Below are positions 2,161-61,886 of a stretch of DNA of 64,000 nt, piece by piece. Source of the stretch: Methanothermococcus sp. (GTDB lineage Archaea > AGJL01 > Methanococci > Methanococcales > Methanococcaceae). Both the position numbers and the translations under genes were made by a program. The stretch lies in assembly GCF_015523155.1 (NCBI RefSeq), contig NZ_WAKW01000003.1, positions 3,695-67,694 on the forward strand. Reading direction: 5' to 3'. The number at the start of each line of letters is the position of its first letter. Position 1 is the first letter of the stretch. The notes under the pieces are model-generated. The model was not told where the DNA came from. It did no database searches and saw only the letters and a program-made list of their open reading frames with translations.

Positions 2161-2835
2161 ATGGATGTAAATAAATTAAATAAAATAATAAAATTGCTTC
2201 CCGGATACAACTGCAAAGCATGCGGTTATAAACGATGCGATATTTTTGCAGAGGAACTTTTAAATGGTGAAACTTCACTGGATAAATGCCCATTTTTATT
2301 TAGGGAAGATTTTAAGGAAAATATGAAAGAATTAAAAGAATTATTAAAGGATGTCGAGTATAAAAAAGAGGTAAAACCAGAAGTGGAAAAAGAAGAAAAA
2401 AAACTCATAGGAGTAATTGATGGGTATGAAGCAGATTTTCTGTTGGACCCGCTACCTAATGAACATTCATGCAGGGAAACTTTAATAATTACAGATAAAA
2501 GACCTTTAAAAATTGGAGATTATATCCAATACAGACCATTAGGCTGTCCGATACCACATTTTGCTAAAATAATTGATGAAAATCATGGATTGTATATTGC
2601 CCATATTGAAGGTCCATGCCATAGAATCACAGGGGAAGAAAAAGAATATATAAACGTAGGTATTGCCATGGTTGTGGCATTTGAAGGCATAGTTATTGGA
2701 AAGGTTCCAGAAGTCGGGCATACTGTTAAGTTTATACCAAATCACTGCATGATGCAAAAGGTTCATTCAGGGGTAGTTGTTGAAGTTGAAGGAAACAGAG
2801 TATATATTGAAGGTATTGATTTAAAGGTATGGTGA
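2161..2835 (+). CDS. (Fe-S)-binding protein
   Basis: N-terminal LPGYNCKACGYKRC...CP putative Fe-S domain; Cys/His-rich C-terminal domain; ATG 2161 directly follows upstream stop. Confidence 0.8.
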   Translation: MDVNKLNKIIKLLPGYNCKACGYKRCDIFAEELLNGETSLDKCPFLFREDFKENMKELKELLKDVEYKKEVKPEVEKEEKKLIGVIDGYEADFLLDPLPNEHSCRETLIITDKRPLKIGDYIQYRPLGCPIPHFAKIIDENHGLYIAHIEGPCHRITGEEKEYINVGIAMVVAFEGIVIGKVPEVGHTVKFIPNHCMMQKVHSGVVVEVEGNRVYIEGIDLKVW

Positions 2836-2914
2836 TTAGAGATTTTAAATCCTCTGGATTTTTATTTATCTTTTTGCTTGTAAATTAGACTAAATCACTT
2901 CGTGATTTCGTTGC

Positions 2915-4132
2915 TCACTTGGCTATGCAGGTGATTTCATTATCCAACATCTTCAAAACCTTTCTAAGAGGTATTTTTAATTCTTCTGCTATTTTTTTGG
3001 CGTCTTCATATTCTGGTTTCATATTTATTATTTTATCATCAATACATGATATTTTCACATTAAATTTAAATTCCTTGCCATTTATATTAATAAAATGGGT
3101 TTTTTCAATTCGCTCTGCCTTTATCCTATCTATCTCTTTTATTCTTACCCCTAATGTTCCAGTTTCTTCCATAAGCATTTTTGCAAGTTTTTCAGATTTT
3201 GCATAATTTGTGATTACAGAAATAATATTGGTGGGTCGGTTTTTCTTTCCGATACCATTTACAACAAATACTTCTTTTGCCCCTTCATTTAGTAGTTTTT
3301 CAAAAAGATTTCCTATAATCTCCCCAGAAACATCATCTACATTGGTTTCAAGCACAACCATGTTTTTTTCTATATTTTTGTTTATTTTTCCTTCAATAAC
3401 TCTTAAAATATTTGGGACTTCTTTTAATATTTTTGAGCCTCCACCATATCCAACTTTTATGGGCGTCATAGGGGGGAAGTTATCCACAATTTCATCAACC
3501 ACATTGGAAAGTACGGCAATGCCCGTTGGTGTAGTATGTTCAAATTTAGTGGCATAAGGTGGATTGGAGTATTTTATACCATGTTTGCATAATATTTCAA
3601 GGGTAGCAGGAGCAGGAACTGATAAAATACCGTGTTCCATACTCACATATCCACCGCCAAGAACTGGGGGTGTGGAGTATATTTTTCCGTTCAAAAATCC
3701 GTTTTTTTCAAGGAGCATTACGCTTCCAACAACATCAAAAACTGTATCAAGGGATGCCACTTCGTGAAGGTGGAAGTCGGTTTTATGGAGCTTTTTTTCG
3801 GCAGATATTAAATCGTCTATAATATTACAGATTATGTTCTTTGCCCTTTTGGATAAATTCAAATTATTAGAAACTTCCTTAACGGCATCTTTTAAATCTT
3901 CTGGGCGGTGAAATCTATCTTCAATTATATTCATATAAAGCTTTTTTACCACTATACCGTTTATTTTTTCTTCCTTAATATTTACTTCAAATTTTTTGCA
4001 GTTTTTTAGATTGTTGATGGTGGAGGTGAGCTCACATAATAAATCAATATCATCGGTTAAATCAATAAGTGCAGATATGAACATATCACCGGATATTCCA
4101 GATATTTTGGGGTCTATAATTAGAGTTTTCAT
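2915..4132 (-). CDS. larC: LarC-family nickel insertion protein
   Basis: SGISGDM, FHLHEV..LD, HGILSVPAPATLEI, TPTG, LETNVDD motifs. Confidence 0.9.
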   Translation of the reverse strand: MKTLIIDPKISGISGDMFISALIDLTDDIDLLCELTSTINNLKNCKKFEVNIKEEKINGIVVKKLYMNIIEDRFHRPEDLKDAVKEVSNNLNLSKRAKNIICNIIDDLISAEKKLHKTDFHLHEVASLDTVFDVVGSVMLLEKNGFLNGKIYSTPPVLGGGYVSMEHGILSVPAPATLEILCKHGIKYSNPPYATKFEHTTPTGIAVLSNVVDEIVDNFPPMTPIKVGYGGGSKILKEVPNILRVIEGKINKNIEKNMVVLETNVDDVSGEIIGNLFEKLLNEGAKEVFVVNGIGKKNRPTNIISVITNYAKSEKLAKMLMEETGTLGVRIKEIDRIKAERIEKTHFININGKEFKFNVKISCIDDKIINMKPEYEDAKKIAEELKIPLRKVLKMLDNEITCIAK

Positions 4133-4217
4133 ACTATCACTTTTTTATATTAAATGAAGGAAATAATATTTAAAATATATTCCTATTTTAATCTTTAATT
4201 TAATAAATTATACGTAT

Positions 4218-5042
4218 ATGTTATATGATTATCATCGTGATATTATGTATATCTTAAAAGTGGCATATGATGAATATAATTATGGATTCCAATCTCAACC
4301 ACATAAAGAAACCGTTTGTGATAAAATAATGGATGCTTTAAGAGAATGTAATTATTTAGCAAATGATAAAATAATTTTTTATGGTGGAAGGACTGATAAA
4401 GGCGTTTCTGCAATTGGAAATTTTATAGTGGTGGAATTAAACCAAGAGCCGATTTTATCCTATATTTATTCAAAATTAAAAAATAAAGGAATTTGGATTT
4501 TAGGCTACAACAAAATAAATGCCATTCCAGAGGTAAAATATAGACATTATAGGTATATATTGCCTAATATGCTATATGATGATGAATATAATATTGATTT
4601 AATGAAGGAGGCTTCAAAAAAAATCATAGGAACGCATTCATTCCATAACCTATCAAAAAGAGATAGAACAAAGGAAAAAAGCCCCATTAGGACAATATAT
4701 GATATAAAAATTGATGAAAATCCATATTATATTACAATTGATGTTATCGGCAAAAGTTTCCTGTGGAATATGGTAAGAAAAATAATTACTGCACTATCCG
4801 AGGTGGGAAAAGAAAATAAATCTTTGGGATGGATAGATGAACTCCTGTGTGAAAACTATAAAGAGGGCGTAGCACCGGCACCAGCAGAGGGGCTTATACT
4901 GATGGATGCAAAAACTGATGTAGATTATATTTACGATAGCTATGTGTTAAATAGATTTAAAAGGGAGTGGATGGAAAACTATAAAAAAACAACCATGAAA
5001 TTAGGAGTATGTAGAAATATGGTAAATTCGTTTAATATATAA
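4218..5042 (+). CDS. truA: tRNA pseudouridine(38-40) synthase
   Basis: YGFQSQP, GRTDKGVSA catalytic motif, GTHSFHN, FLWNMVRKI. Confidence 0.92.
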   Translation: MLYDYHRDIMYILKVAYDEYNYGFQSQPHKETVCDKIMDALRECNYLANDKIIFYGGRTDKGVSAIGNFIVVELNQEPILSYIYSKLKNKGIWILGYNKINAIPEVKYRHYRYILPNMLYDDEYNIDLMKEASKKIIGTHSFHNLSKRDRTKEKSPIRTIYDIKIDENPYYITIDVIGKSFLWNMVRKIITALSEVGKENKSLGWIDELLCENYKEGVAPAPAEGLILMDAKTDVDYIYDSYVLNRFKREWMENYKKTTMKLGVCRNMVNSFNI

Positions 5043-5050
5043 AAAGAGTA

Positions 5051-5258
5051 GTGAATTACTCCCCTCCGTCTTAAAATGGACTCTCCCATCGCAAATCTTT
5101 ATTTGCGAGCTAAAATCCAAAGGATTTTTTAATCCCTTATCTTCGCGAAGCGAGGGGATTAAACAGAATGCTTCGCATTTTGTAGCTCACCAACTTTGTT
5201 GGTGATTTTAAAAATCTTTGATTTTTAAGACGGAAGGGGACTTCTTGCGGAATAAGTT
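5051..5258 (-). mobile_element. Non-autonomous hairpin-array element, copy A (IS200/IS605-end-like termini)
   Basis: Outer inverted repeat 5061-5076/5223-5239 encloses six short hairpins; termini GTGAATTACT and GAAGGGGACTTCTTGCGGAATAAGTT shared with copies at 23886-24215 and 61457-61871. Confidence 0.7.
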
Positions 5259-5261
5259 AAA

Positions 5262-5900
5262 TCATGCTCTTTTATTCTTACTCAATGCGATAATTCCATT
5301 GGCAATTGACACTGCAACAGGAGTTCCCCCTTTTGCCCCTACTGTGGTTATAGATGGAATATTGGTATGTCTTAACGCCTCTTTTGACTCGCCTGCTTTT
5401 ACAAAACCAACCGGAGCTCCGATAACAAGTTTTGGTTTTATGTCCTCTTCATTTATCAATCTAATTACTTCAAATAGTGCAGTAGGTGCATTACCTATTA
5501 CAACAATACCTCCGTTTATAAGTTTTTTTGCAACCCTCATAGATGCCATAGCTCTTGTAATTTGCTCCTTTTTAGCCATTTTATAAGTTTCTCTATCGTT
5601 TATAAAGTTATGCAAATTATCGTATCTAATACCGGCTTTAACCATATTAACATCAACAACTATTGGTTTTTTATTTTTAATTGCTTCAATGCCATTTTCT
5701 ACTGGGTTATTTTTAAAAACTAAAAGTTTTGCATATTCTTCATCTGCTGTGGCATGCACAACCCTTTCCATTATTGTCAGTTCTTCATTGGAGTACTCTT
5801 TTAATTTATCACCCAAAACACATTTTATTTTATTTCTTACAATTTCCCTAGATTTCTCAGCAATATTTAATCCATCCTTTGTTGTAGCTCCCATAAACAT
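5262..5900 (-). CDS. cbiC: Precorrin-8X/cobalt-precorrin-8 methylmutase
   Basis: RVVHATAD, DVNMV, TRAMASM, IGNAPTAL, PVGFV, KGGTPVA motifs. Confidence 0.92.
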   Translation of the reverse strand: MFMGATTKDGLNIAEKSREIVRNKIKCVLGDKLKEYSNEELTIMERVVHATADEEYAKLLVFKNNPVENGIEAIKNKKPIVVDVNMVKAGIRYDNLHNFINDRETYKMAKKEQITRAMASMRVAKKLINGGIVVIGNAPTALFEVIRLINEEDIKPKLVIGAPVGFVKAGESKEALRHTNIPSITTVGAKGGTPVAVSIANGIIALSKNKRA

Positions 5901-10733: not shown

Positions 10734-10806
10734 AAGCGACATTGATATATGCTTGATTGGTATTGATAAAAGCGACATTGATATATGCTTGATTGGTATT
10801 GATAAA
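10734..10806 (+). repeat. Exact 36-bp in-frame tandem duplication
   Basis: AAGCGACATTGATATATGCTTGATTGGTATTGATAA occurs at 10734 and 10770; protein reads SDIDICLIGIDK twice. Confidence 0.95.
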
Positions 10807-15485: not shown

Positions 15486-17807
15486 ATGACTGATTTGATA
15501 ATCTGTGAGAAACCAAATGTTGCAAAAAAAATAGCAAATACACTTGGAAAAGCTAAAAAAAAATCATTAAATAAGGTTCCATACTATGAATTGGAAAGGA
15601 ATGGAAAAAAAATAATCGTTGCATCTGCTGTTGGACACTTATTTACATTGGAAGAGGTAAAAACCGATAAAAAGAAAAAATTTGGAGAATATCCTGTTTT
15701 TGACATAAGATGGGTTCCTGCTTCAACTATAAAGGGGAAGGAATATGTTCAAAAATACATAAACACGCTGAAAAAACTTGCAAAAGAAGCTGATGAGTTT
15801 TACATAGCATCAGACTGGGATATTGAAGGGGAATTGATAGGGTATCATGCGTTATACTACTGTTGCGGAAAAAAAGATGCAAAAAGAATGAGATTTTCTA
15901 GTTTAACTAAAAATGAAATTGTTAAAGCATACGAGAATCCTGATAAAATAGATTTTGGGCTTGTTGATGCAGGGGATAGTAGGCATAAGGTAGATTGGTA
16001 TTATGGTATAAATGTTTCAAGAGCTTTGATGCAGTCCATAAGGGCAGTCAATAGATGGCAGACTATGAGCACAGGTAGGGTTCAAGGTCCTGCACTATCA
16101 TTTTTAGTTGATAAGGAGCTGGAAATAAGAAAGTTTGTTCCAACACCCTACTGGGTAATCGGAGCTCACTTAAAGGATGAACTCACGGCTATTCATGAAA
16201 AGGATAAATTTTGGGATGAAAAGGAAGCTAATGAAATTTACAACAAAATAAAGGATGAAAAAGAGACAGTAGTTTCAAGTGTCAAAAAAACTAAGAAAAA
16301 GATAAAACCAAATCCACCATTTGATTTGGGGACATTGCAAAGGGAGGCACATAGGGCATTTAAATTTTCACCAAAAAAGACGCAGGAAATAGCTCAGAAG
16401 CTTTATGAGCAAGGAATATGCTCTTACCCTAGAACATCCTCTCAAAAGCTTCCAAAGGATGAAAATTACATAAAGGATATTTTAACCAAAATTTCAAAAC
16501 ATAGCGATTATAAAAAATATGCCGAGCTCATTTTAAATGAAAATAGAAAACCAATAGAAGGTAAAAAAAGCGACCCTGCACACCCTGCAATACACTTTGT
16601 AGATATTCCAAAAGAACCACTGGCTGATGACGAGAAAAAATTATACGATTTAATTGTAAGAAGAACGTTGGCAGCCTTTTGGGGTGATGCAGAAAGGGAA
16701 TATGTCAATGTAGTATTGAACATTGGTGGAGAAAACTTTAAACTCAGCGGTTCAAGAACTGTAAAAGAGGGGTGGCACGAGATATATTACTTCACAAAGT
16801 TTGATGAAAAAGAGCTCCCAAGTTTGAGAAAAAACGATAAAATACCTGTTGAAAAAATAACCATTGAAAGAAAGGAAACAAAACCACCCAAAAGATATAC
16901 AATGGCATCTATTATAAAAGAACTCGAATCAAGGGAGTTAGGGACAAAAGCTACTCGTGCTGATATTGTAGAAAAACTCGTAAAAAGAGGATATTTAATT
17001 GATGACGGCTCTTTAAAAGTGACTGATTTGGGGATAGCAGTAATTGAAACCCTTAAAAAATACTGTCCTGAAATAATTGATGAACAGATGACAAGAGAGC
17101 TGGAAAAGAAACTGGATAGATTACAGAAAGGAACCATAAAAAAGGAAACCGTTTTAAAAGATGCTGAAAATAAGTTAAGGGCGATACTTGAAGAGGTTAA
17201 AAAGAAGGAAAAAGAAATAGGAAAGGAACTGGTGGAAAAGATAGATACAACAAACAAATCTTTAAAAACTGTTGGTAAGTGCGAATGTGGCGGAGATTTA
17301 ATAATAATCAGGGCAAAAGGTAAAAAAAGGTTTATAGGATGCACAAACTATCCAGAATGCACAAAAACTTATCCATTACCTCAGAAAGGAAGGATAAAGG
17401 TTTTAAATGAGACCTGTGAAGTTTGCGGAGCTCCGGTGATAAGCATAGATAATCAGAAAGTCTGCATAAATCCAGAGTGTTCGTCAAAAATATCCAGTGA
17501 AGAACAAAAAGAAATAGAAAAAGCTGAAAAAGCTGAAAAAACCTGCCCAAAATGTGGTGGAAAGCTAGTAATTAAAAAAGGAATTTACGGCGTATTTTTA
17601 GGCTGTGAAAATTATCCAAAGTGTAGATATACGGAAAAGCTGAACGGTAAAAATAAAACTGAATCTGAAAAGGTAATAGTAGGTAAATGTCCCGACTGTG
17701 GCGGAGATTTAATAATAAGGAAGGGAAGATTTGGGGAATTCATAGGATGTTCAAACTATCCAAAGTGTAAATATACGGAAAAATTAAAAAAGAAAAATAA
17801 AAAATAA
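15486..17807 (+). CDS. topA: DNA topoisomerase I (type IA) with C-terminal Zn ribbons
   Basis: ICEKPNVA, DWDIEGE, STGRVQ, SYPRT (catalytic Tyr), HPAIH, LGTKATR. Confidence 0.95.
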   Translation: MTDLIICEKPNVAKKIANTLGKAKKKSLNKVPYYELERNGKKIIVASAVGHLFTLEEVKTDKKKKFGEYPVFDIRWVPASTIKGKEYVQKYINTLKKLAKEADEFYIASDWDIEGELIGYHALYYCCGKKDAKRMRFSSLTKNEIVKAYENPDKIDFGLVDAGDSRHKVDWYYGINVSRALMQSIRAVNRWQTMSTGRVQGPALSFLVDKELEIRKFVPTPYWVIGAHLKDELTAIHEKDKFWDEKEANEIYNKIKDEKETVVSSVKKTKKKIKPNPPFDLGTLQREAHRAFKFSPKKTQEIAQKLYEQGICSYPRTSSQKLPKDENYIKDILTKISKHSDYKKYAELILNENRKPIEGKKSDPAHPAIHFVDIPKEPLADDEKKLYDLIVRRTLAAFWGDAEREYVNVVLNIGGENFKLSGSRTVKEGWHEIYYFTKFDEKELPSLRKNDKIPVEKITIERKETKPPKRYTMASIIKELESRELGTKATRADIVEKLVKRGYLIDDGSLKVTDLGIAVIETLKKYCPEIIDEQMTRELEKKLDRLQKGTIKKETVLKDAENKLRAILEEVKKKEKEIGKELVEKIDTTNKSLKTVGKCECGGDLIIIRAKGKKRFIGCTNYPECTKTYPLPQKGRIKVLNETCEVCGAPVISIDNQKVCINPECSSKISSEEQKEIEKAEKAEKTCPKCGGKLVIKKGIYGVFLGCENYPKCRYTEKLNGKNKTESEKVIVGKCPDCGGDLIIRKGRFGEFIGCSNYPKCKYTEKLKKKNKK

Positions 17808-17843: not shown

Positions 17844-17905
17844 TTTCGCTTACTTCGTAAGCGAAATGAAGGATTTATAACAAGGGGCTTCCTGTGCTAT
17901 AAGTT
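17844..17905. repeat. Truncated copy D of the hairpin-array element
   Basis: CGCTTACTTCGTAAGCGAAATGAAGGATTT and degenerate terminus AAGGGGCTTCCTGTGCTATAAGTT match copy B. Confidence 0.7.
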
Positions 17906-17952
17906 AAATTTAAATTTTGAATATCATAATATATATGCTTATGCAATATTTC

Positions 17953-23621: not shown

Positions 23622-23885
23622 AAAATTATTTATTAATATGAACCAAATTATATAAATTGAATAGGATAAAAAAGTTAAATTAAGTTTTTTTATTATTCCT
23701 CTGATTTAACAAATTCCACTACCATAAGCCATATACGCAATAATCCAAAAAAATAATGGAAGGAATATGTAATTTCTGAATGCAAATCTAATCCGTTATT
23801 AATTTCAAATAGTAATATTAATTAATATTGACAATTACAAATACCATGTCGGTTAAAAAGGTTTTAAGTTTATTATTATATGTTA

Positions 23886-24215
23886 GTGAACTACTGGCCT
23901 TATGGACGAAGCTTCCAGCCTGTCCCGTAGTCTTCACAGGCGTCACTGCACTGTCAGTCTTTGGACCTTTTCATTTAGGTAGCAATAAAATATTTGAGAA
24001 TAACTATATAATTATATAAATTACGGCTTTCATCCTTCCGTAGCGAAGCGGAGGCTACAACTAGAAAAACCTTCGGTTTTTGTTGCTCACTTACTTTGTA
24101 AGCGAAATGAAGGATTTTTTATCCCTTATCTTCGCGAAGCGAGGATATATTACAATCAAACGAAGTTAAAATCCGAAGGATTTATAACAGAAGGGGACTT
24201 CTTGCGGAATAAGTT
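23886..24215 (-). mobile_element. Non-autonomous IS200/IS605-derived element, copy B (hairpin array plus omega-RNA-like end)
   Basis: Reverse complement aligns with 61457-61871; on the minus strand ends GGAAGCTTCGTCCATAAGGCCAGTAGTTCAC. Confidence 0.7.
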
Positions 24216-24237
24216 GAAAATAAAAATTGGTGATTAC

Positions 24238-25356
24238 ATGATAGATGATAAAATAAGAGATATAGTGAAATCTTTTAAAGCCTATGTTCCAGGGAAATCA
24301 AAGGAAGAAATAGCAAGAAATTACGGGATAAACCCAAAAGATATTATAAAATTAGGTTCAAATGAAAACCCATGGGGATGCTCTCCGAAAATAAAGAATG
24401 AAATATTTAAAGAGATTCCAAAAATTTATCAATATCCAGAACCAATAAATCCAATACTCATGGAAGAGCTCTCCAAATTTACAGGAGTTTCAAAGGAGAA
24501 TATTGTTGTTGGTGGAGATGGTGCAGATGAGATAATAGATGCAACAATGAGGATATTGGTAAATAACGGCGATGAGGTAATTATTCCCATACCCACATTT
24601 ACACAGTATAGAATATCCGCATTAATATATGGTGCAAAGGTAAAATATGCAAAATTTGACAAGGAAAAGGATTTTAAATTGGATATTGATAGTATTTTAA
24701 ATAATATAACAGATAAAACAAAAATTATATTTCTATGTACCCCCAATAATCCAACAGGAAATATAATCGATAAAAAGGACATTGAAAAAATCATAAATTC
24801 AACGGACGCATTGGTGGTAATAGACCACGCCTATATAGAATATTCAAAAGAGGAATACGATTTAACAAACTGGGCATTAAAGTATGATAATGTTTTGGTG
24901 TTAAGAACATTTTCAAAGGTATTTGGTTTAGCAGGCCAGAGAATAGGCTACGGTATTACAAGTAAAAAAATCGTAGATTATATGATGAGGGTTAAACCAA
25001 TATTCAGTTTAACAAGATTAAGCCAAATCTGTGCTATTACAGCACTAAGAGATAAGGAATTTTTCAATAAATCAAAAAATGATGGTATAAAGAGCAGAGA
25101 AATATTATACGAAGGATTGAAGAAATTTAAAGAATTAAAAGTATATCCATCTGAGGCAAACTATCTTTTAGTTGAGGTTAAGAATGGTATGAGCTCAGGT
25201 GAGTTTTGTGAAGAACTCTTAAAAAGAGGGGTAATTATAAGAGATTGCAAGTCTTTTGAAGGACTTGATGGAGAGTATGTAAGGGTTGCCATTGGAACTT
25301 TTGAAGAGGATAAAAGATTTTTGGAGATTTTAAGGGATTTAATGATGAATATCTAA
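24238..25356 (+). CDS. hisC: Histidinol-phosphate aminotransferase
   Basis: [37 protein letters not shown]. Confidence 0.93.
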
Positions 25357-31910: not shown

Positions 31911-32021
31911 TTGATTCAAACGCATCTTTTAAAAAAGGATGCTATCCAAAATCCAACCTCCACTCGCTATCACTCGTGTCGGTTGGAACCTGATATAGTA
32001 ATATTGGTATAAAAAATATAG

Positions 32022-32106
32022 TGCGGGGGAAGGGATTTGAACCCTCGAACCCCTACGGGACTAGGCCCTCAACCTAGCGCCTTTGGCCAGACTTGGCAAC
32101 CCCCGC
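32022..32106 (-). tRNA. tRNA-Leu(GAG)
   Basis: Minus strand GCGGGGG acceptor, anticodon arm CTAGG-TTGAGGG-CCTAG, long variable arm, GGTTCAAATCC T-arm; no encoded CCA. Confidence 0.95.
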
Positions 32107-32230: not shown

Positions 32231-32343
32231 GCCGAGGTGGCTTAGGCTGGTTATAGCGCTCGGCTCATACGGATATTCCCAAGGTGCTTTTCCTTGGGTC
32301 CTGGGAAACCGAGAGGTCGGGGGTTCAAGTCCCCCCCTCGGCA
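32231..32343 (+). tRNA. tRNA-Met(CAT), probably elongator, with 38-nt intron at 37/38 (32270-32307)
   Basis: GCCGAGG acceptor, CTCGG-CTCATA, BHB motif (CUCA/UGGG central helix, UA|C and AA|A bulges), GGTTCAAGTCC T-arm. Confidence 0.93.
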
Positions 32344-51368: not shown

Positions 51369-51603
51369 TTTATCACCTGCCACTTTTAAAACCAATAATC
51401 CTATAATCAATAATATGGTTGAAAATATAAAATAAATTTTGGATATATATAATGGTTAATAATAAAATAATAAAAATAAAATACTTACAAAATATATTCT
51501 TGGAAAATGTAAAAAAGCGTAATATCCATTATCTGCTGAATAGACTGCTTAAATCGATGATGATAGAACAATACAAAAAAAGCAAAAATTCTTTTAATAA
51601 AAA

Positions 51604-51911
51604 GTGGCTTCCTTGGGGTGGATATAAGCTCCTCCTGCCCATCTACCCCAAGTTCTGCTCGATTCCGCTACCCTGTGAGCGTCGGTGTCCCACCTACCGC
51701 TGCTCCCTTCCGGGCCTGACGGGGTTCGGTGGATTAAGGAGGTTTGCCCACTCCCTACAGAGTGGGTCCCTCCACCGCCTTACCCCACAGGACGAAATGT
51801 CAACACAGAACTTGGGAATGAGCAGGAAGATGCTCATACCGCCCCCAAGTTTTCGGCTCCCGCATGAGACGATTTCGGGTTACAGGGGACGCCTAACCCC
51901 CCAGCCTAGCC
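51604..51911 (-). ncRNA. ffs: Archaeal SRP (7S) RNA
   Basis: GC-rich island; minus strand contains helix-8 GTCAGGCCCGGAAGGGAGCAGC; upstream GAAAAG-TATATATA promoter; 3' end approximate. Confidence 0.92.
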
Positions 51912-52073
51912 AATCTATTTATTTATACTTAATGTATATATACTTTTCTGTTATTTAATACCTTTTAAATTTAATAAAAAATGTTAAATTTGATAAAAAG
52001 GAAAATATAAATATATGGTAATACAAAATGTTTTATATCTATTTTAAAGATTAAATTTATAAAGGAGGATAAT

Positions 52074-61368: not shown

Positions 61369-61456
61369 TGTATCATCTATTTTTTATATTTTTTTATTTT
61401 CATAATTAAGTTATATTTTATTTTTTTCATTATATAATTTTATTTTATTTAATTTT

Positions 61457-61871
61457 AACTTATTCCACAAGAAGTCCCTTCTGTTATAAATCCTTCGGAT
61501 TTTAACTTCGTTTGATTGTAATATCTCCTCGCTTCGCGAAGATAAGAATTAAAAAATCCTTCATTTCACTTACAAAGTAAGCAAGCAAAAATCGAAATCT
61601 CCGATTTCGAGCTACAAAACTCGAAGAGTTTTGTTTAAACCGAAGGTTTTTCTAATTAGCATTGAACAATAGTGATGAAAACTTAAAAGTTAGTTTTAGG
61701 TCTCCACTTCGCTACTGGGGGATGAAAGCCGAAAATTATTTATATAACTATTCTCACAATATTTATTGCTACCGAAAAGAAAAGGTAGCCTAGGGCTGGG
61801 ACAGTCCGAAGTGACGCCTGTGGAGACTACGGGACAGGCTGGAAGCTTCGTCCGTAAGGACAGTAATTCAC
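61457..61871 (+). mobile_element. Non-autonomous IS200/IS605-derived element, copy C (hairpin array, TATA, tnpB-tail/omega-RNA-like end)
   Basis: Same termini as copies A and B; 61784-61871 translates GSLGLGQSEVTPVE (TnpB-tail-like) and ends GGAAGCTTCGTCCGTAAGGACAGTAATTCAC. Confidence 0.72.
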
Positions 61872-61886
61872 TGAATATATTCCATT

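Follow-up and report, generated by a model that had tools for sequence, protein, structure and literature searches.

The 64-kb stretch of DNA analysed here (the window) belongs to the metagenome-assembled genome (MAG) GCA_027074775.1, in which its contig is 91 kb long, and its host is an uncultured heat-loving methanogen of the genus Methanothermococcus (Methanococcales), with a TruA 86% identical to that of Methanothermococcus okinawensis. The genes in the 84 kb of contig examined are housekeeping genes only (mcr, mtr, por, topA, SRP54, ftsZ, and others). Between the convergent genes truA (PF01416; 4218..5042, plus strand) and cbiC (PF02570; 5262..5900, minus strand), a gap of 219 bp is filled by one full repeat unit of 213 nt (c1; 5050-5262, plus strand), the edges of which were set by a step in k-mer depth and by contig breaks. 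The G+C content is 38% in the element and 7-28% in the adjacent intergenic DNA. The locus is letter-for-letter the same in two independent assemblies (L001 and L002) and is also present in Logan contigs; the sequencing data containing it are of DNA metagenome origin only (one run, the one used for k-mer depth).

The repeat unit c1 opens with a conserved 5' tail, AGTGAATTACT (5050..5060, plus strand), which is common to c1 and to the copies c2, c3, and L004 described below, and has the family consensus (A/G)GTGAAYTAC. The tail is followed by the G+C-rich 5' arm of an outer stem, CCCCTCCGTCTTAAAA (5061..5076, plus strand), pairing with a 3' arm, TTTTAAGACGGAAGGGG, that has one bulged A (5223..5239, plus strand). 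This G+C-rich stem of 16 bp is placed around an array of six mini-hairpins (5089..5226), which are, in order and all on the plus strand, TCGCAAAT-CTTT-ATTTGCGA (5089-5108), AAAATCC-AAA-GGATTTT (5112-5128), TTAATCC..CTTCGC-GAA-GCGAGG..GGATTAA (5129-5162), containing the palindrome CTTCGCGAAG and the motif GCGAAGC, ACAGAATGC-TTC-GCATTTTGT (5163-5183), TCACCAAC-TTT-GTTGGTGA (5187-5205), and AAAAATC-TTT-GATTTTT (5210-5226). The mini-hairpins have C-G closing pairs and loops of AAA, GAA, TTC, TTT, or CTTT, and a run of six T is found inside the array at 5125-5130. The outer stem and the six mini-hairpins are present as described in an earlier note on this DNA, which had quoted their sequence correctly; because the 3' arm and the last mini-hairpin share 4 nt (5223-5226), full formation of one structure precludes that of the other. 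The unit ends in a conserved 3' tail, ACTTCTTGCGGAATAAGTTAAAT (5240..5262, plus strand), with a small imperfect hairpin (ACTTCTT-GCGG-AATAAGT), and no other family module is as abundant as this tail. The outer stem is subterminal and asymmetric, with 11 nt before it on the 5' side and about 23 nt after it on the 3' side, and the two ends of c1 pair together instead of forming separate left-end and right-end hairpins.

Folding of the segment 5043-5261 was scored against dinucleotide shuffles. As single-stranded DNA the segment has a predicted energy of -44.6 kcal/mol, as compared to -20.6 +/- 3.0 kcal/mol in the shuffles (z -7.9; none of 200 shuffles as good), and as RNA -75.8 kcal/mol on the plus strand (z -6.8) and -72.1 kcal/mol on the minus strand (z -6.0), in agreement with the structure that had been proposed. 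The predicted fold is still favourable at 65 °C (RNA -34, DNA -21 kcal/mol). Perfect hairpins, defined as stems of at least 6 bp with at least two G/C pairs and a loop of 3-4 nt, were counted over the 64 kb, and 9 of the 27 found are inside four family copies making up 1.6% of the sequence (about 20-fold concentration, P = 3e-10). The motif GCGAAGC is found six times in the window (1.5 expected), five times within copies, with exact sites at 5145 (plus strand) and 5176 (minus strand) and also in c2 and c3. The oligonucleotide d(GCGAAGC) forms an unusually stable single-stranded DNA mini-hairpin. The copies resemble such mini-hairpins in carrying the exact GCGAAGC and in having C-G-closed triloops as most of their loops, but d(GCGAAGC) is a structural motif and not an element family, and the corresponding stability in these copies is a predicted one.

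Searches of the 64-kb window by BLAST and with a profile of the 3' end identified four copies (c1-c4) and one fragment, all of them intergenic. Copy c2 (23885-24219, plus strand, 335 nt) is a long form located between aroE and hisC, and carries both family tails together with an additional 5' module rich in G+C and a TATATAATTATATA stretch; its hairpin modules are not those of c1. A spurious N-terminal extension of hisC begins within c2, an annotation error accounted for by the repeat. Copy c3 (61455-61872, minus strand, 418 nt) is also a long form, located between genes for a TGS-domain GTPase and an M24 peptidase, both on the minus strand, and it corresponds to c2 with one additional pair of hairpin modules. 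Copy c4 (17844-17912, plus strand, 69 nt), downstream of topA (15486..17807, plus strand), is a short 3' fragment with one hairpin, TTTCGCTTAC-TTC-GTAAGCGAAA, followed by a diverged 3' tail, GGGGCTTCCTGTGCTATAAGTTAAA. The additional fragment (2884-2920, plus strand, 37 nt) consists of AAATCAC-TTC-GTGATTT and the linker CGTTGCTCACTT, and abuts the stop codon of a larC-like ORF (2915..4132, minus strand); a second contig has this piece as well and then runs on into the next hairpin of the family. The 23-nt 3' end, GGGGACTTCTTGCGGAATAAGTT, has three matches in the window with none expected, those outside c1 being at 24193 (plus strand) and 61479 (minus strand). Three of the window copies have plus and one has minus orientation, which is uninformative. 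The repeat is not coding, since c2 and c3 differ by indels whose lengths are not divisible by three. A CRISPR array, a tRNA or intron-related structure, and C/D or H/ACA RNA were also considered and rejected.

Conserved parts of the family include the 5' tail (A)GTGAAYTAC, the G+C stem, and the 3' tail ACTTCTTGYGGAATAAGTT, with the ends reading AGTGAAYTAC... and ...GGAATAAGTT; the small imperfect hairpin of the 3' tail has the family form ACTTCTT-GYGG-AATAAGT, and a central hairpin, GGATTTTTTA..CTTATCTTCGCGAAGCGAGG, is also common to the copies. The interior hairpin modules vary between copies, being swapped, added, or lost within the stem, and copy sizes span 45-418 nt. Modules of the type ACA..C-TTC-G..TGT, with (A/T)GC after them, come first, followed by the type TC-N5-C / loop / G-N5-GA, which precedes T-runs or AAATG. 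The same mosaic build is seen in the metagenome, where one contig has the 5' half of c1 joined to a c2-type 3' half (with a loose end at 5160) and another has a 66-nt skip between two GAAGGATTT repeats, the same form as c4. Contig P0039 is short, and its 5' end is apparently unrelated and possibly chimeric. Long copies have a 5' hairpin, GTCC-TTAC-GGAC, similar to that of the minimal unit described below, with no clear second one at the 3' end. They also carry a consensus-like TTTATATA box, and their G+C-rich 5' module gives the better fold when read from the opposite strand, where it has G-U pairs and a hairpin with a GUAA loop.

Edges and copy number were obtained from the Logan contigs of the single metagenome run holding the locus, which were aligned to c1 and read for assembler k-mer depth. 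The depth rises from about 150 to more than 3000 at 5050/5051 and drops back after approximately 5259-5271. Relative to the flanks (word depth about 147-150, taken as 1), it is about 20-26 times higher in 5051-5128 (2800-3900), about 6-15 times higher in 5129-5219 (900-2200), and about 30-37 times higher in 5233-5258 (4200-5500). At least 99% identity is found in 28 of the 41 contigs aligned. The contigs of the unique flanks reach as far as 5079 on the left and set in again at 5233 on the right, in each case about 30 nt (k-1) within the element. The limits that the earlier note had drawn around the hairpin-packed stretch coincide with these repeat-unit edges. The 3' 65 nt of c2 have a depth about 20-35 times that of the flanks, and part of the 5' module of c3 (61717-61833) about 10 times, at 99% identity or more. 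Independent Logan contigs (L003 and L012) end at the element edges. Contig breaks in the MAGs that carry the repeat are accounted for by it. The metagenome k-mers correspond to roughly 20-35 copies, a number that co-occurring strains may inflate.

The mini-hairpin array of c1 has compensatory changes relative to the homologous modules of c2 and c3. In a positionally homologous module pair from c1, c2, and c3, aligned via the conserved linkers, 96% of cells remain paired, and both sides have changed in 7 of the 17 pairs; controls with slid partners are 33-45% paired, and no more than 3 of 500 shuffles did as well as the real modules. The double changes come as blocks of adjacent bases. Such blocks are produced by single template-switch events (PMC8794818), which suggests maintenance of the palindromes at the DNA level as the more economical cause. 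Pairing of the internal palindromes would then be kept mainly by template switching or palindrome correction, and selection on each separate copy would be the lesser cause.

A scan of JGI metagenome records with the 3'-end pattern gave one match, the minimal copy L004 (45-50 nt) on contig JAALLR010000010.1 of a second MAG. This copy reads GGTGAATTAC-CCTCCC-TTAC-GGAAGGG-ACTTCTTGCGGAATAAGTTAAA, and includes both tails and a G+C stem with a 4-nt loop; it is antisense to both adjacent genes. In L030 (GCA_002494795.1) and L031 the minimal copy is replaced by a 41-column gap in otherwise alignable intergenic DNA, and the flanking ABC permease is 99% identical to that of L004. This is the only filled/empty pair found (L004 vs. 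L030 and L031), and its junction is not sharp. At the empty site the sequence, AAAGTAGTTAAAAA (...AATAAAGTAGTTAAAAATAAC), resembles the 3' end of the element, AATAAGTTAAAAA, and more weakly its 5' end, and the difference could result either from insertion at a target similar to the element or from a deletion that spared approximately the last 10 nt. Relatives at 86-96% amino-acid identity have no element downstream of truA or upstream of hisC. Because gene order there also differs (truA-cupin-UCP005278 vs. truA-cbiC here; trkH-hisC vs. aroE-hisC here), these relatives do not provide a clean empty site for either c1 or c2. With roughly 20-35 copies and one filled/empty pair, the family is not the handful of invariant copies that would have spoken against a dispersed element.

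The earlier note had seen no target-site duplication, and none was found here, as direct repeats of at least 5 nt are absent from the ends of c1, c2, and L004 and a search around all full copies gave nothing consistent. Three candidate signals were rejected: the 7-nt TGGAATA in the left flank of c3, as a target duplication, matches the element's own 3' tail; a 15-nt match between the right junction of c1 and the end of M. okinawensis larC was judged to be due to chance in A+T-rich DNA; and ARTRARTTA, as a general target motif, occurs at the chance rate (26 occurrences vs. 24.6 expected).

The profile of the 3' end detected no copy across approximately 70 kb of the relatives. The strict 3'-end pattern had no match in 185,579 species-representative genomes (GTDB), and the loose pattern had 11 matches in the same genomes, all in unrelated bacteria, at chance expectation, and none in Methanococcales. 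There were no matches to the 3'-end pattern in viral contigs, nor to c1 and c2 in BLAST searches of plasmids and phages. Rfam 15, applied at gathering threshold to the whole window, gave nothing on c1, c2, or c3 (matches elsewhere being the SRP RNA and two tRNAs only), and with E up to 10 the best matches for c2 and c3 were at chance level (16-21 bits vs. thresholds of 40-60). No report of such a hairpin-repeat family in Methanococcales was found in the literature. The suggestion of an undescribed REP/REPIN-like dispersed family in Methanococcales agrees with these results, the family being multi-copy, non-coding, and uncatalogued. It is new and lineage-restricted, its unusual features being the nested modular mini-hairpins and the archaeal thermophile host, and its copies are near-identical and missing from sister species, which argues that it is young.

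The copies form a repeat family with defined edges, mosaic interiors, compensatory pairing, a restricted lineage, and one presence/absence polymorphism. On balance, c1 rather likely belongs to a family of dispersed or mobile REP/MITE-type repeats that are non-coding, non-autonomous, and restricted to one lineage. The unit that defines the family and would be gained or lost as a block consists of the 5' tail, the G+C stem, and the 3' tail. In its minimal form this unit is a single hairpin of 45-50 nt, and in most copies the loop of the stem has been filled by interchangeable mini-hairpin modules (TC-N5-C / loop / G-N5-GA; ACA..C-TTC-G..TGT) that are duplicated, swapped, and deleted between copies. 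An enzyme acting in trans would recognise the conserved tails and the stem, and make or move the copies. As hairpins precede T-runs on both strands, the copies probably also serve, as a side effect, as terminators or transcript ends between genes. The favoured sub-mechanism would be a single-strand, hairpin-recognising transposition without target duplication, performed by an IS200/IS605-TnpA or RAYT-like enzyme. The general reading of the earlier note, a dispersed REP/MITE-like repeat, is retained, and the more specific identification with an IS605 end is not supported.

The HUH-type single-strand route, nested in this explanation, is given about half of the probability assigned to mobility and is proposed only tentatively. 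According to it, c1 would be an IS200/IS605-derived (PATE-like or REP-like) element whose excision and insertion take place as single-stranded DNA, through a Y1 HUH transposase binding to the G+C stem and cutting within the tails. The asymmetric subterminal position of the inverted repeat, the lack of target duplication and of terminal inverted repeats at the very ends, and the one-hairpin minimal copy of 45-50 nt, whose small size and asymmetry do not allow for paired terminal repeats of the DDE type, are consistent with this route, as are the C-G-closed GAA, AAA, TTC, and TTT triloops, including the exact GCGAAGC (DNA-type C-GAA-G), and the predicted persistence of the DNA structure at 65 °C. 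The idea that c1 is an IS605-type right-end hairpin with an expanded loop found no match, by sequence or model, to any IS end, and c1 has no separate left-end and right-end hairpins. Annotation of 84 kb of the contig revealed no transposase of any kind, Y1/HUH and TnpB included. The left flanks GAGTA, TGTTA, ATTCA, and AATAG have no common tetra- or pentanucleotide, which with four flanks is a weak test; they somewhat resemble the element's own 3' end (ATAAGTTA). The HUH route is kept as a live hypothesis because the anatomy fits it better than it fits a DDE-type MITE. It is graded below the repeat reading because the left flanks do not show the feature that defines HUH insertion and because the search for a Y1 gene covered 84 kb. 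In a further, rather speculative extension, the single-stranded unit would be moved by a hairpin-recognising enzyme, HUH or other, and its loop would serve as a landing pad in which self-similar, heat-stable mini-hairpins of the C-GAA-G type nest and multiply, the mobile hairpin growing with each one it takes up. If true, Methanococcales would have their first REP-like system, in a thermophile, and the long copies might, in addition, export a promoter together with a small antisense RNA.

The main rival to mobility is that the modules are selected structured RNAs, i.e., 3'-UTR, terminator, or stabiliser hairpins, with the long copies being small-RNA genes having their own promoter, and that they spread via duplication or recombination and not by transposition. 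Five of the six copies or fragments in the window genome follow the direction of the upstream gene, three of them starting 7-36 nt past its stop codon, and T-runs are found behind hairpins on both strands; L004, however, is antisense to both of its neighbours. The compensatory and G-U changes that keep pairing, the TTTATATA box of the long copies, and the opposite-strand folding of their G+C-rich module would also be expected of RNAs. Against this, searches with E up to 10 gave no Rfam match better than chance, loops of purines and the complementary loops of pyrimidines are both present, and triloops are not favoured RNA motifs. The copies differ in module content, and sister species with the same genes lack the family, which makes an essential RNA function unlikely, and the RNA explanation as a whole is considered improbable.

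A DDE-type MITE, moved as double-stranded DNA by cut-and-paste via terminal inverted repeats and leaving a short A/T-rich duplication (e.g., TA), appears still less probable. The repeat has the small size (below approximately 600 bp), non-coding nature, multiple copies, intergenic location, and presence/absence between strains known for MITEs. A weak inverted similarity of 9 nt is found at its tips (AATTACTCC vs. the reverse complement ACTTATTCC, 7 of 9 positions), and several copies can be read as TA/GTGAA...AAGT/TA, in which case a 2-nt TA duplication would be hidden by the A+T-rich DNA. However, the strong inverted repeat (16 bp) lies inside the element and not at its ends, the two tails differ in length (11 vs. 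about 23 nt), a left TA is seen in two of the four copies only, the 45-50 nt minimal copy has no usable terminal repeats, and no parent IS was found. A chance cluster of palindromes or an assembly artefact, in favour of which speaks nothing but the origin of the source from a metagenome-assembled genome, is practically discounted by the presence of the same sequence in two independent assemblies and in Logan contigs, by z of about -8 vs. shuffles, and by the multiple copies with common ends.

Small hairpin repeats (REP, REPIN, and MITE) are well studied in bacteria and, to our knowledge, barely described in methanogens. Bacterial REP, BIME, and REPIN elements are mobilised by RAYT, a Y1 HUH enzyme; REP palindromes are imperfect and 20-40 nt long, and the RAYT gene is typically flanked by REPs. 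The present family resembles these elements in its short intergenic hairpin unit with conserved unpaired tails, at least tens of copies, and no target duplication, in being frequent at gene 3' ends and between convergent genes, in the formation of mosaics by the units, and in stems that keep pairing by compensatory changes. It differs in having GTGAAYTAC in place of a GTAG-type tetranucleotide, an archaeal host, and modules nested in the loop of the defining stem, whereas REPs are placed side by side; its copy number is modest (about 20-35), and no RAYT is present in the 84 kb examined.

PATEs are palindrome-associated non-coding derivatives of IS200/IS605 (IS1341-type) found in haloarchaea and cyanobacteria. 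They offer an archaeal precedent, and are likewise non-coding and a few hundred bases long, with a palindrome near one end and without terminal inverted repeats or target duplication, but they have ends in common with resident tnpA/tnpB and a fixed left-flank motif, neither of which was found here. Transcripts at the 3' end associated with PATE-type elements have been described (PMC4615843). Pneumococcal BOX, ERIC, Correia, Chunjie, and QMITE elements are similar to the present repeat in being modular, with variable internal subunits and strong predicted structure, in their intergenic or 3'-UTR location, and in having REP-like truncated copies; however, they are bacterial, generally have terminal inverted repeats and usually direct repeats at the insertion site, and have no sequence in common with it (PMC10969869). 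Mitochondrial hairpin elements or G+C clusters of sponges also consist of G+C-richer modules that invade A+T-rich intergenic DNA, are not the same in closely related species, and can be nested or arranged in tandem, but they belong to organelle genomes and have no common sequence, and the comparison is descriptive only (PMC2800124).

A stem loop that gathers interchangeable paired modules provides a test case for the origin and upkeep of hairpins by template switching vs. selection (PMC8794818). The repeat also raises the question of an archaeal enzyme mobilising hairpin DNA at high temperature. It sits at two places where gene order is altered relative to the relatives, and being young, lineage-specific, and located at such changes, it may shape both genome rearrangement and transcript ends in this vent methanogen.

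The long copies of the repeat family, c2 (23885-24219, plus strand) and c3 (61455-61872, minus strand), open with approximately 45 nt whose sequence resembles a divergent version of the minimal unit, the single hairpin with tails found on a contig of a second MAG (L004). When c3 61872-61830 is compared with L004 1812-1764, the long-copy start reads AGTGAATTACTGTCC-TTAC-GGACGAAGCTTCC and the minimal unit GGTGAATTACCCTCCC-TTAC-GGAAGGGACTTCTTGC. Because of this resemblance, the sequences suggest that elements of the family are nested or joined to one another.

A small antisense RNA may be encoded by the additional 5' module that the long copies carry (23885-24020 in c2; 61872-61717 in c3), on the strand opposite to the element. 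The module has a consensus-like TTTATATA box directed into a G+C-rich segment, and the opposite strand of this segment folds into a structure that includes a GUCC-GUAA-GGAC hairpin and contains several G-U pairs. Metagenome depth of 61717-61833, a part of the c3 module, is about ten times that of its flanks. Rfam gave no match for the module.

A further hairpin, AAATCC-TCT-GGATTT (2847-2861), has a stem identical to the AAATCC/GGATTT modules of c1-c3 and is single-copy by depth. It lies beside the 2884-2920 fragment of the family, in the gap where an FeS-domain gene and larC converge.

Other features of the window include a perfect 36-bp tandem duplication (10734-10805; AAGCGACATTGATATATGCTTGATTGGTATTGATAA twice) within a nucleotidyltransferase gene (NTP_transf_2/Polbeta), which is in-frame and corresponds to 12 residues. 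This gene is followed by a HepT-like gene, and the two are therefore assigned to an MNT-HEPN-type pair. The tRNA called by Rfam, without an ARAGORN report, at 32231-32343 on the plus strand spans 113 nt and is probably an intron-containing archaeal tRNA. The minus strand carries tRNA-Leu(GAG) at 32021-32106 and SRP RNA at 51601-51916.

For hisC, the longest ORF begins with a TTG within the 3' tail of c2 (region 24202-24237), and the deposited gene call, of 384 aa, takes this start. The true start is likely the ATG at 24238, which is preceded by GGTGAT; the N-terminal extension of hisC is thus spurious and caused by the repeat.

The family also affects assembly. Logan contigs L003 and L012 (SRR10312496), built from short reads and belonging to the window genome, end at most 30 nt from element edges, and the repeat family is therefore one cause of MAG fragmentation in the window lineage. 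Copies c1 (5050-5262) and c2, moreover, fall precisely at sites of gene-order difference from the relatives (L005-L010, L013 and L017). At c1 the window has truA|cbiC whereas the relatives have truA|cupin|UCP005278, and at c2 it has aroE|hisC in place of their trkH|hisC. Rearrangement breakpoints may be marked or mediated by these two repeats.
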